DNA from: an uncultured Candidatus Bathyarchaeia archaeon | GTDB lineage: Archaea; Thermoproteota; Bathyarchaeia; Bathyarchaeales; Bathycorpusculaceae | NCBI GenBank assembly: GCA_964450845.1 | Contig: CAYVGZ010000015.1 | Location: forward strand, 1 to 23,225 | Direction of reading: 5' to 3' | Length of the DNA stretch: 23,225 nucleotides | In this document: piece after piece, positions 17,605 through 20,526 of the stretch | How positions within the stretch are numbered: the stretch's first letter is position 1 | Layout: every line of letters begins with the position of its first letter | Program-made: the position numbers and the translations under genes | Notes under the pieces: model-generated | Database searches by the model: none | What the model was told of the DNA's origin: nothing | What the model saw: the letters and a program-made list of their open reading frames with translations, nothing else

Positions 17605-17613
17605 GTGAGTTTG

Positions 17614-17832
17614 ATGGCTCAAGTTCAGCTTAGGTTGCCTGAGAAGGTGCTTGAGGAGATAGATAGGTGGGTAGCGGAGGGGCGGTTTAAGAGTCGAAGC
17701 GACGCTGTAAGGAGTATTATTAGTTTTTATGAGGAGAGGGAGAGGACGCGCGAGTTTTTTAGGATGCTGATGAGGCGGAGTGAAGAGGCGAGGAAGCATC
17801 CCGAGGCTCTTGTTTCTTTAGAGGAGTTTTAG
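17614..17832 (+). CDS. Ribbon-helix-helix antitoxin (CopG/RelB-like)
   Basis: QVQLRLPEKVLEEIDRWV..G.FKSRSDAVR RHH pattern; tail ending LVSLEEF; stop 1 nt before the toxin start. Confidence 0.85.
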   Translation: MAQVQLRLPEKVLEEIDRWVAEGRFKSRSDAVRSIISFYEERERTREFFRMLMRRSEEARKHPEALVSLEEF

Positions 17833-17833
17833 T

Positions 17834-18103
17834 TTGGTTTTTAGCGTGGTTTTGCATTCGAAGGCGGCTAAGGCTTTGGAGAGGATTGAAGAGCCTGTCA
17901 GGTTGAGGATTGTTGAAAGGTTGAGGGAGCTGAGAGTTGGTCCTGAGAGGGTTGGGAAGCGTTTGAGGTTTTCTGATTTTTGGAGTTTGAGGGTGGGTGA
18001 TTATCGGGCTATTTATGAGATTTACAGAGACGAAAGTAGGGTGGTTGTATTGTTTGTTGGGCATAGACGGAAAGTGTATGATGACTTCTCGAAAACGTTC
18101 TAA
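17834..18103 (+). CDS. relE: RelE/ParE family toxin (mRNA interferase)
   Basis: FSVVLHSKAAKAL...WSLRVGDYRAIYEI...VVVLFVGHRRKVY; GAGGAG RBS within the antitoxin gene. Confidence 0.9.
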   Translation: MVFSVVLHSKAAKALERIEEPVRLRIVERLRELRVGPERVGKRLRFSDFWSLRVGDYRAIYEIYRDESRVVVLFVGHRRKVYDDFSKTF

Positions 18104-18212: not shown

Positions 18213-18330
18213 GTTTTAGCCACGTTTCGATTTTGTCAATGTTATAGTATAAGACGTTTTTAATAAACCTAAAATTTTGGGGGAATGTTTCTTAAGGCTC
18301 TGCTGTGCATATCGTATTGTTTAGTGGTGC

Positions 18331-18549
18331 GTGTTTGGCGTGGAGTTAGATGAGGTGCGTTGGTTGCGGTTGGGGCGGCTTAAGCCAGAGGAGAAAGTGA
18401 ACATGGCGTTGGACATGTCAGATGCTGTTGTTCGCATATGTGCGGAGGGCATTAAGGCGCAGAACCCAGGCATAACGGAAAAAGAGCTAATTGAGAAGTT
18501 GAGGGAAAGGATAGAATGGAGCAAAAGATGGCGAAAGCGTGGTGTTTAG
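18331..18549 (+). CDS. Small helical protein, MenA1-like antitoxin candidate
   Basis: EEKVNMALDMSDAV...AQNPGITEKEL resembles M. tuberculosis MenA1 (QKLRLALDM...RERPNAD, recalled); abuts the nucleotidyltransferase gene. Start could be GTG 18340. Confidence 0.7.
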   Translation: MFGVELDEVRWLRLGRLKPEEKVNMALDMSDAVVRICAEGIKAQNPGITEKELIEKLRERIEWSKRWRKRGV

Positions 18550-18550
18550 G

Positions 18551-19105
18551 GTGTTGGAAGTTTTTTATGATGTTGTTAAGCGTATTGTGAAGAGTTTTGA
18601 AAAGATGGAAATTGATTATGTGTTTACTGGTGCTTTGGCTGTGAGTTTTTATGGTGTTCCGCGGACTACAGTGGATGTTGATGTTGTTGTTGCGGTTGCT
18701 GAAGTGAAGCAGAGGGTTAGGCTTGTTGAGGCTTTGAAGCTTGCCGGGCTGGTTGTGAGTGAGAGGGAGGTTGATAGGGCGCTGGAGTCTGGTTATAGGA
18801 TAGCTACGTTTAGGGACGGCAAAACGGCGTATAGCGTTGATGTGATATTTTCGGATGGGAAGCTTGTGAAGAGGGCTGGAACGGTTGCGGGATTGCCCTG
18901 CTTTTATCAGACGCCTGAAGAACTGATTTTGGCGAAGCTACGGATGATTAAGGCGACTGTGCCGCGTGAAAGAGGGTTAAAGGATGAGGAGGATGTAAAA
19001 GCGATTTTGAAATTCACAAGGGTTAACATTAGAGCTGTTAAAGAAAAAGCAAGGAAGGACGGCACGCTTGCTATTTTTGAGGAAATAATGAAGAAGAAAG
19101 AATGA
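18551..19105 (+). CDS. Nucleotidyltransferase, MenT1/DUF1814-DUF6036-like toxin candidate
   Basis: GALAVSFYGVPRTTVDVD (DxD), VDVIF, LILAKL (Lys), KDEED (Asp). The ORF track starts at 18539; GTG 18551 just after the upstream stop is more plausible. Confidence 0.8.
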   Translation: MLEVFYDVVKRIVKSFEKMEIDYVFTGALAVSFYGVPRTTVDVDVVVAVAEVKQRVRLVEALKLAGLVVSEREVDRALESGYRIATFRDGKTAYSVDVIFSDGKLVKRAGTVAGLPCFYQTPEELILAKLRMIKATVPRERGLKDEEDVKAILKFTRVNIRAVKEKARKDGTLAIFEEIMKKKE

Positions 19106-19260
19106 AGAATGGAGAGTCTATTGATTTGCAATTAAAACTGAGTGACACTCAAGCGCTGGGGGCTTCCTTAGCTGTGGGCACTCTCACTGATATTGCTGTG
19201 CGAATGAAAATTCTGAATGATAGATGGATAAGTGCAATTAATAATCGTCTACTGAAATGA
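19102..19260 (+). CDS. Possible 52-aa ORF coupled to the nucleotidyltransferase gene
   Basis: ATGA overlap at 19102-19105; MKNGESIDLQLKLSDTQALGASLAVGTLTDIAVRMKILNDRWISAINNRLLK*; no recognised motif. Confidence 0.25.
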   Translation: MKNGESIDLQLKLSDTQALGASLAVGTLTDIAVRMKILNDRWISAINNRLLK

Positions 19261-19553: not shown

Positions 19554-20375
19554 TTAGGTTTGGTGGAGCACTTTTTCAACGTAGTATTTTGATATAAGCT
19601 CTGTTGTTAATCCTGTCTCCTCCCTAATTTTAGGCAACAATCCACACCACAATTCTCTCACAGCCCCAAGCCTTCGTTTAAAATCTTTCACTGAAAAACT
19701 CTTAACAAGCAACGCTTCACCTACAAGCCTCTTGTAGCCTACTGGCAGCCACTTTAACCCATAAGAATAAAAGATTCTCCATTTCGGCGCAGGCAAAAAC
19801 TCCCTATTCAAAGTATATATCACCCTAACTAACAATTCAATAGCATAATTCAGACAGTAATGTGCAGAAACTAAATCGCCCCTCTCAACCCAACACTCAG
19901 CAACAGTACCCACATCCTTCTTCGGCGGACAGCAATACCATTTAAGATACTCACCACAAATCACAATACGCTTAACCCAAAAACCCTTGCTAACCCTAAA
20001 CTTCTCCCAAAACACCTTCTTTACCTCGCCTTTCGGGTCAAAAACAATCTCCGCCCTAGAAAACTCCCACTTATCCACCTCATCCCACTTCCACCGCCTA
20101 AAATCCGCCAGAAAATGAACCTCCAAATCTACGTCAACGCCAAGACGTCTTTGCTCATCTAACCCTAAACCACGAATTCTCCTTCTAAGCCGCTCATCCC
20201 TTCTACTCAGGAAAACTATGATGTCAACGTCTGAAAACTTGTCCGCAAAACCCCTCACCAAACCGCCAATAAACACAATCCCAGCAACACCTTCAAATGA
20301 AGAAATCTTTGAAACAAGCCCATCAGCAACCCGCCTAAACTTCCTAATCTGATTTTCTCCCTTCAACTCAACCAT
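19554..20375 (-). CDS. Pol-beta-superfamily nucleotidyltransferase with helical C-terminal domain (KNTase/DUF4037-like)
   Basis: GGLVRGFADKFSDVDI (GS-like x10 DxD); C-terminal LN.EFLP..KW motif; ATG 20375 preferred over 20453. Confidence 0.82.
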   Translation of the reverse strand: MVELKGENQIRKFRRVADGLVSKISSFEGVAGIVFIGGLVRGFADKFSDVDIIVFLSRRDERLRRRIRGLGLDEQRRLGVDVDLEVHFLADFRRWKWDEVDKWEFSRAEIVFDPKGEVKKVFWEKFRVSKGFWVKRIVICGEYLKWYCCPPKKDVGTVAECWVERGDLVSAHYCLNYAIELLVRVIYTLNREFLPAPKWRIFYSYGLKWLPVGYKRLVGEALLVKSFSVKDFKRRLGAVRELWCGLLPKIREETGLTTELISKYYVEKVLHQT

Positions 20376-20526
20376 CCTTTTCACGCAACCTTCCAATCCC
20401 ATACCAAATAACCGACTATGACATGCATAACGTGAACTATCGAGCAATTTCACAATTTATGTTTTCTGGCAAAAACAAAATCGTTATATGCTAAAAGCAA
20501 ATATGCAATTAAAAAGGTGAATCAAA

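Follow-up and report, generated by a model that had tools for sequence, protein, structure and literature searches.

A probable MenAT1-type toxin-antitoxin gene pair in a hot-spring archaeon of the class Bathyarchaeia

We propose that two overlapping genes of an uncultured Bathyarchaeia archaeon, recovered from a hot-spring metagenome, probably form a MenAT1-type toxin-antitoxin module with translational coupling. The genes lie in a 23,225-nucleotide (nt) stretch of contig CAYVGZ010000015.1, here called the window, whose numbering is used for the coordinates of the locus. The first open reading frame (ORF), at 18331..18549 on the plus strand, encodes the antitoxin candidate, a small helical, MenA1-like protein listed at 72 amino acids (aa) that was picked out by the ORF list, a match to the PF18993 family and models of the protein and its complex. 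The second, at 18539..19105 on the plus strand, encodes the 188-aa nucleotidyltransferase that is the toxin candidate, recognized by its sequence and fold matches to MenT1 and by PF08843 matches among its relatives. Both ORFs begin with GTG, and the end of the first overlaps the start of the second by 11 nt. The original prediction, made from the letters alone, described a helical ORF of about 70 aa abutting a nucleotidyltransferase of about 185 aa, and this description holds; a stand-alone model of the small protein is all-helical, with four helices (mean predicted local distance difference test score, pLDDT, 69.7). The pair is present as one copy in its genome, with no paralogue. Our reading draws on homology and fold, on the conservation of catalytic residues, and on how strictly the genes are paired and how patchily the pair is distributed.

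The toxin candidate is homologous to MenT1 of Mycobacterium tuberculosis. MenT1 (8an4, 8an5 and 8rr5) is the best sequence match of the single 188-aa protein in the Protein Data Bank (PDB; E 1.3e-3), and it was again the best match of a profile built from 42 close relatives (E 2.9e-6). A broad profile, which combined the close relatives with relatives of 25-45% identity from an exhaustive search, matched MenT1 at E 3e-14 (56 bits) over profile positions 4-155, with all four motifs aligned. In the PDB searches with toxin profiles MenT1 alone fell under E 1e-5; AbiGII was reached only at E 1e-3, and MenT3 and MenT4 were not matched by the broad profile. A PDB search with the C-terminal half of the toxin alone did not find MenT1, and the C-terminal motifs align only with the broader profile.

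The four motifs, all on the plus strand, correspond to MenT1 at their key residues. Motif I (residues 30-50, 18626..18688) comprises a glycine loop, a phospho-acceptor threonine and two metal-binding aspartates, with T44, D46 and D48 corresponding to T39, D41 and D43 of MenT1. Motif II (18833..18847) is the SVDVI strand carrying the third acidic residue, D101, and aligns to the VDLLF strand of MenT1 (D98). Motif III (18914..18943) is the segment PEELILAKLR, in which K133 corresponds to MenT1 K137 (LIAMKL), and motif IV (18980..19006) is KDEEDVKAI, in which D149 and D152 correspond to the MenT1 residues of the same numbers (QDRSDLRAL). T44, D46, D48, D101, K133, D149 and D152 are invariant across the 42 close relatives, and in the broad alignment each is at least 90% conserved except D149. 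The toxicity of MenT1 is abolished by D41A, K137A or D152A (PMC10435456), and in MenT1 the antitoxin induces auto-phosphorylation at T39 (PMC10435456, PMC11375011). Much of this alignment had been anticipated in the original prediction: the strings it quoted from the window all occur in the translations, the MenT1 strings it gave (the glycine-loop/TRDVD segment, VDLLFA, LIAMKL and QDRSDLRAL) are correct when compared with the PDB sequence, and the catalytic DxD, lysine and aspartate that it named are present, aligned to MenT1 and conserved (DxD, K133 and DxxD).

Close kinship with MenT1 bears on what such a toxin would act on. One alternative, which we judge improbable, retains the toxin and its small inhibitor but assigns them a target other than tRNA CCA ends, namely another RNA, a protein or the nucleotide pool, and allows that virus-triggered abortive infection, and not addiction or a stress response, may be the main role of the pair. 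The superfamily is indeed functionally mixed: AbiEii and AbiGII, the latter being the weaker PDB match mentioned above, are abortive-infection proteins, and even among MenT members the preferences for nucleotide and tRNA differ (PMC10435456). The pair also stands beside genes resembling toxin-antitoxin components, a ribbon-helix-helix (RHH)-ParE pair and a 299-aa nucleotidyltransferase with weak matches to the PADLOC model PDC-S09. However, every characterized MenT toxin tested acts on tRNA 3' ends (PMC10435456, PMC7450476), the protein described here is far closer to MenT1 than to any other relative, and no virus or defense-island hallmark was found in the window.

The two genes are strictly paired. 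A homologous small ORF lies directly upstream on the same strand at 12 of 12 related loci, and in a second set of loci a small gene occupies this position in 78 of 80, the other two being cut by contig ends. Because the upstream partner is thus present at 12/12 and at 78/78 assessable loci, the pairing is far beyond chance. It extends to an Asgard relative, 26% identical and annotated as DUF6036, whose overlapping upstream 85-aa gene is homologous to the antitoxin candidate (hhalign 94%, E 9e-8). The named relatives all come from metagenome-assembled genomes (MAGs) of Bathyarchaeia, which places the organism in that class. At 90% identity the relatives form 897 clusters for the toxin and 1,309 for the antitoxin, the latter found with a profile. 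An exhaustive search with the toxin returned 3,088 representatives at E <= 1e-3 but only 28 at E <= 1e-30, so this is a compact subfamily inside a wide penumbra of compact nucleotidyltransferases of the DUF6036, DUF2204 and AbiEii-like kinds. A search of species genomes yielded 109 loci, nearly all in Bathyarchaeia, with a few in Brockarchaeota, one in Hodarchaeota and two in MAGs labelled as bacteria.

Within Bathyarchaeia the distribution is patchy. Of 201 genomes sampled from the class, 56 have a relative (about 30 of them a close full-length copy), as do 39 of the 121 of high quality and 10 of 27 from the same family. Toxin copies broken by stops, frameshifts or split frames were found at G072:C48:1767-2310, G146:C48:610-1133 and G042:C125:1097-1627, and such decay is what would be expected if the toxin gene is accessory. 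The flanking genes vary among related loci. In G202 (locus L099), which belongs to another genus of the same family, the pair directly follows a cyclophilin gene as it does in the window, minus the intervening RHH-ParE pair; the cyclophilin genes of G217 and G214 have no adjoining pair within the stretch examined. Comparison of G000 with G202 gives identities of 57% for the toxin, 53% for the antitoxin and 74% for cyclophilin. Because of this patchiness, the broken copies, the variable flanks, the synteny in G202 and the divergence relative to cyclophilin, the pair fits an accessory, partly vertically inherited and fast-evolving toxin-antitoxin cassette.

The same distribution is informative about a second alternative, that the enzyme is not a toxin but has a housekeeping or regulatory task, with the small protein as its regulatory subunit, and that the pair is kept for a cellular function and not as a selfish or defense module. 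The shared position beside cyclophilin in G202 implies some vertical inheritance, as that explanation would have it, but a gene pair that is missing from most genomes of its class and its family as well as from most of the high-quality set, that is broken in three genomes, that changes its flanks and that diverges faster than its cyclophilin neighbor is very unlikely to be a housekeeping function.

A toxin-antitoxin reading further predicts that the two proteins interact, and binding of the small protein to the nucleotidyltransferase is supported by a model of the complex. The predicted 1:1 complex scored 0.85, compared with 0.19 for the best of three controls, and passed a mark that 58 of 80 solved complexes reach, as do 2 of 110 mismatched pairs. 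Three runs share at least 86% of their contacts, with a partner pLDDT of at least 79. In the model, antitoxin residues 11-34 and 54-61 face toxin residues 7-10, 13, 32-45, 92, 96-98, 114-118 and 155-159. By the broad-profile alignment, toxin contacts 8-9, 13, 96/98 and 117 correspond to MenT1 A3/V4, L8, A93/V95 and L120, and toxin L123, just beyond the contact list, aligns to MenT1 L119; in the crystal structure, A3/V4, L8, A93/V95, L119 and L120 make up the hydrophobic pockets that hold helix 1 of MenA1 (PMC10435456). The modeled contact with loop 32-45 includes R42, T43 and T44, right before the catalytic aspartate pair, an arrangement that would fit shielding of the active site and would let the antitoxin reposition the phospho-acceptor threonine.

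The fold of the toxin candidate is likewise that of MenT1. In an AlphaFold2 model (pLDDT 80.7, with low confidence in loop 32-41), the top four Foldseek matches are all MenT1 chains (E ~1e-4, TM 0.54-0.62). VIA-align also places MenT1 first (Z 15.2, root-mean-square deviation 3.0, 172 residues aligned), followed by ANT(2'')-Ia (Z 13.1 to 11.7), MenT3 (10.3), LnuA (9.2) and MenT4 (8.6). Comparison with the MenT1 structure and prediction of the complex had both been proposed as checks in the original prediction, and both bear it out: MenT1 heads the two structural searches with other nucleotidyltransferase classes behind it, and the complex model supports binding. Second place for ANT(2'')-Ia is to be expected because the MenT1 study itself used a superposition on ANT(2'') to model nucleotide binding (PMC10435456). 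It is scarcely credible that the protein is instead a small-molecule nucleotidyltransferase of the ANT(2'')-Ia or LnuA kind, modifying an antibiotic or metabolite and preceded by a chance small ORF: beyond the fold matches to these enzymes and a weak Pfam match to Aminoglyc_resit (E 0.18), identity to ANT(2'') is just 14-15% with no significant sequence match, the MenT1 toxin shows the same structural likeness (PMC10435456), and neither strict coupling to an upstream partner, with model-supported binding, nor a conserved phospho-acceptor threonine is a feature of resistance enzymes.

Several points nevertheless weigh against reading the pair as a MenAT1-type module, on the side of the toxin as well as that of the small protein. 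ANT(2'')-Ia trails MenT1 by only about 2 Z units, so the fold alone leaves the substrate unfixed. The best Pfam match of the toxin, PF08843 (AbiEii; E 5e-4, residues 24-83), scores 20.4 bits, under the gathering cut-off of 22.5, which is a database threshold and not a biological feature; PF08843 is matched by 32 of the 42 relatives at E <= 0.01 (best 8.8e-6), and 20 of these 42 close relatives also match PF19502 (DUF6036). No model in PADLOC or NCBIfam recognizes either protein. MenT1 is not toxic in Escherichia coli (PMC10435456), so toxicity is host-dependent. The high score of the complex may reflect memory of, or likeness to, the solved 8AN5 structure and not binding by this particular copy.

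For the small protein, the sole Pfam match is PF18993, the Rv0078B-related antitoxin family (Rv0078B is MenA1), and it lies below threshold (E 0.002, 18.5 bits against a cut-off of 27.1, residues 19-61). The solved MenA1 chain (8AN5) was not reached at E <= 10 in PDB searches with the single small protein or with two family profiles; short helical proteins that fold upon binding make poor queries. Foldseek of the stand-alone model gave no PDB match at E <= 0.001; a structural comparison with MenA1 had also been proposed in the original prediction. Among the relatives, PF18993 is matched over the same region by 22 of 34 small proteins (best E 2.6e-6), and the precomputed PF18993.7 labels of the protein collection cover the window's own small protein and most of its relatives. 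The nearest ESM Atlas clusters are automatically named Rv0078B-related, carry PF18993 in 59-86% of their members and have Bathyarchaeota as their commonest taxon. Because neither the family profiles nor the stand-alone model reach the solved MenA1 chain, the link to MenA1 is indirect, and we regard the assignment of the small protein as an antitoxin as reasonable but indirect. The earlier claim that both partners match MenAT1 therefore stands for the toxin, and is weaker for the antitoxin.

Other features of the small protein were considered in this context. It matched no DNA-binding family in the Pfam and NCBIfam searches. A conserved basic C-terminal tail, EWSKRWRKR, in which W63, K65 and R66 are invariant, lies outside the Pfam-aligned residues 19-61. 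The antitoxin profiles align residues ~10-43 to each of the tetratricopeptide-repeat (TPR)-like repeats in a designed Podospora kinesin-light-chain protein (4y6w/4y6c), and the aligned segments finish at a common 'hP' turn. Homology to this designed protein was dropped, since the match sums four weak repeats of 4-11 bits each and reads as a generic helical hairpin; the resemblance is probably convergent helical-hairpin packing and offers a hint on how the first two antitoxin helices fold. A system of the HEPN-MNT kind, in which the nucleotidyltransferase would be the antitoxin, was rejected since the small protein has no histidine and hence no Rx4-6H motif.

If the pair is a MenAT1-type module, its working can be sketched by analogy. 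Homology to MenT1 would make the 188-aa protein a compact nucleotidyltransferase of the DUF1814/AbiEii superfamily and, as in the rest of the family, the free enzyme would add nucleotides to the 3' CCA ends of tRNAs and block their charging. The first long helix of the antitoxin is predicted to lie over the N-terminal helix of the toxin, the flexible glycine loop near the catalytic aspartate pair and the loops that link strands. Placed there it would shield the active site, and the antitoxin would neutralize the toxin by occlusion. Toxicity of the enzyme, tRNA as its substrate and rescue by the antitoxin would thus be expected of the pair by analogy with MenAT1. A second layer of control, antitoxin-induced auto-phosphorylation of T44, is plausible because the threonine that is auto-phosphorylated in MenT1 is invariant here, an invariance that is necessary but not sufficient for the reaction.

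The starts of both genes may differ from those listed. For the small ORF, in-frame GTG or TTG codons occur at 18331, 18340, 18355 and 18364, and the majority of antitoxin relatives start about 6 residues ahead of the conserved RLGRLKPEE segment, so the real protein is probably 61-69 aa long and may start at 18340, 18355 or 18364. Toxin relatives mostly begin at residue 6 of the 188-aa protein; a start there would fall just past the antitoxin stop and leave no overlap. An A/T-rich element resembling a TATA box (TTTTTAATAAA, 18257..18267, plus strand) can be read in the sequence about 65-100 nt before the candidate starts of the small ORF and may serve the gene pair as an archaeal promoter. Directly after it and upstream of the pair, a near-palindrome (CCTAAAATTTTGGG, 18268-18281) is self-complementary at 12 of 14 positions and may be an operator or mere A/T-rich promoter DNA. 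A scan of the window for sigma-70 promoters and terminators stayed at background level, the sigma-70 model being inapplicable to an archaeon.

The surroundings of the pair include further candidates for accessory genes. Immediately upstream is a second toxin-antitoxin pair, consisting of an RHH/ParD-like gene at 17605-17832 (plus strand; PF01402, E 4e-7) and a parE gene at 17834-18103 (plus strand; PF05016, E 3e-12). At the syntenic site in G202 (L099) the RHH-ParE pair is absent, and in G121 (L009) it flanks the MenAT1-like pair from the opposite side, so the two modules shuffle independently. Convergent with them, at 19554-20453 on the minus strand, is the gene of the 299-aa protein, which has an NTP_transf_2 domain (E 1.7e-7), a DUF4037-like C-terminus and PDC-S09 matches at E 2e-4; no partner gene is evident, and the protein may be a further accessory nucleotidyltransferase of the same islet. 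A 52-aa ORF at 19102-19260 (plus strand), whose ATG overlaps the toxin stop (ATGA), has no family match and no counterpart in 11 related loci and is probably not a gene.

Some relatives depart from the usual arrangement. The two copies on bacteria-labelled MAGs, L049 (Limnocylindrales bacterium) and L093 (Sulfotelmatobacter sp.), are close (57% and 46% identity); either they were transferred into bacteria or the contigs are archaeal and were mis-binned. At L083:1279-2040, on the Bathyarchaeota MAG contig CAWGAW010000013.1, the antitoxin gene is seemingly frameshifted, its N-terminal half being in frame with the toxin in a 254-aa ORF and its C-terminal half readable in another frame at 1382-1495; either the gene has fused or decayed naturally or the assembly is in error. 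The antitoxin profile also matches a second ORF (E 1e-23) at L063:450-602, directly after a toxin gene cut by the contig end, which suggests tandem modules in that genome. A 24%-identical toxin relative with intact motifs in Candidatus Uhrbacteria (L095:1501-2061) lies between genes for a YchF-type GTPase and a UPF0020 methylase, a context that recurs in 14 of 24 contigs read, with no recognizable antitoxin; a 60-aa ORF upstream was considered as its antitoxin and proved unrelated to the antitoxin candidate (hhalign 0.7%). This relative may stand for a branch of that nucleotidyltransferase family in which the enzyme is domesticated and not a toxin.

Among known systems, the closest is MenA1-MenT1 of M. 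tuberculosis (Rv0078B-Rv0078A; PDB 8AN4, 8AN5 and 8RR5). Its toxin is of the same size class (~197 aa, compared with 188 aa), is the best match in both sequence and fold and aligns at the four motifs and the phospho-acceptor threonine; its antitoxin is likewise a helical protein of about 60-70 aa, with no DNA-binding domain, encoded immediately upstream, and the predicted contacts map to the pockets that receive MenA1. The differences are that toxin identity is just ~20%, that the host is a hot-spring archaeon and not an actinobacterium, and that the archaeal small protein is linked to MenA1 by a sub-threshold PF18993 match only and has an invariant basic C-terminal tail. The mycobacterial system is known for a 1:2 stoichiometry, an asymmetric heterotrimer with a single antitoxin bridging two toxin protomers, and for a preference for cytidine and antitoxin-induced auto-phosphorylation, whereas the archaeal pair is known from its sequence and a 1:1 model.

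More distant comparisons set the pair apart from other members of the superfamily. AbiE (AbiEi-AbiEii) and the MenAT3 and MenAT4 systems (DUF1814 toxins with COG5340 antitoxins) have toxins of the same nucleotidyltransferase superfamily, but these are about 290 aa long with extra C-terminal elements, and their antitoxins are two-domain winged helix-turn-helix proteins that autoregulate transcription, unlike the small helical partner seen here. PygAT of Pyrococcus yayanosii, as cited in PMC11375011, is an experimentally functional archaeal toxin-antitoxin pair of the same superfamily, so the archaeal setting is not unprecedented; according to that paper it is of a different branch, its toxin being of the DUF2253 kind and its antitoxin a COG-type regulator. 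The compact DUF6036 (PF19502) and DUF2204 nucleotidyltransferases of archaea and candidate-phyla bacteria are uncharacterized, and the more distant profile relatives of the toxin are annotated as DUF6036; at least one Asgard member has a homologous small upstream partner, whereas the Uhrbacteria relative sits among housekeeping genes with no recognizable partner. ANT(2'')-Ia, although of similar size and second in fold, lacks significant sequence similarity, acts on a small molecule, and has neither an antitoxin partner nor conserved pairing.

Our literature search found no description of an archaeal MenAT1-type pair, and in this respect the expectation of the original prediction, that such a module was uncharacterized, is upheld. 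It needs qualification in that archaeal DUF1814 pairs such as PygAT are known and Pfam already tags the small proteins as Rv0078B-related. PMC11375011, citing PygAT and Makarova et al. 2013, records DUF1814 nucleotidyltransferases in archaea together with toxin-antitoxin pairs built on them, and a 2023 survey of MenA1 listed 21 bacterial homologues (PMC10435456). We speculate, tentatively and with the odds rather against it, that MenAT1-type modules are mainly archaeal, with their center in Bathyarchaeia and a range that extends to Brockarchaeota and Asgard archaea, and that mycobacterial MenAT1, with its 'atypical genomic region' and 21 bacterial homologues, is a rare, laterally acquired offshoot. 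The same speculation extends to the invariant basic tail (EW.KRWRKR) in the archaeal antitoxin, which may bring a further role absent from MenA1, for example by plugging the acidic active site or by binding nucleic acid.

The pair opens no new kind of biology; its interest lies in range and annotation. To our knowledge, MenT toxins have been studied almost solely in M. tuberculosis, and the relatives described here widen that range to a large, strictly paired family in uncultured archaea. The genes of this family are nearly all annotated as 'hypothetical protein' and are missed by PADLOC and NCBIfam, which leaves a gap in annotation. The logic of tRNA tailing, together with the phospho-acceptor threonine, may operate too in archaea, which use another class of CCA-adding enzyme to make the CCA ends of their tRNAs. 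The hot-spring source could yield heat-stable proteins for structural work on antitoxin-induced auto-phosphorylation.

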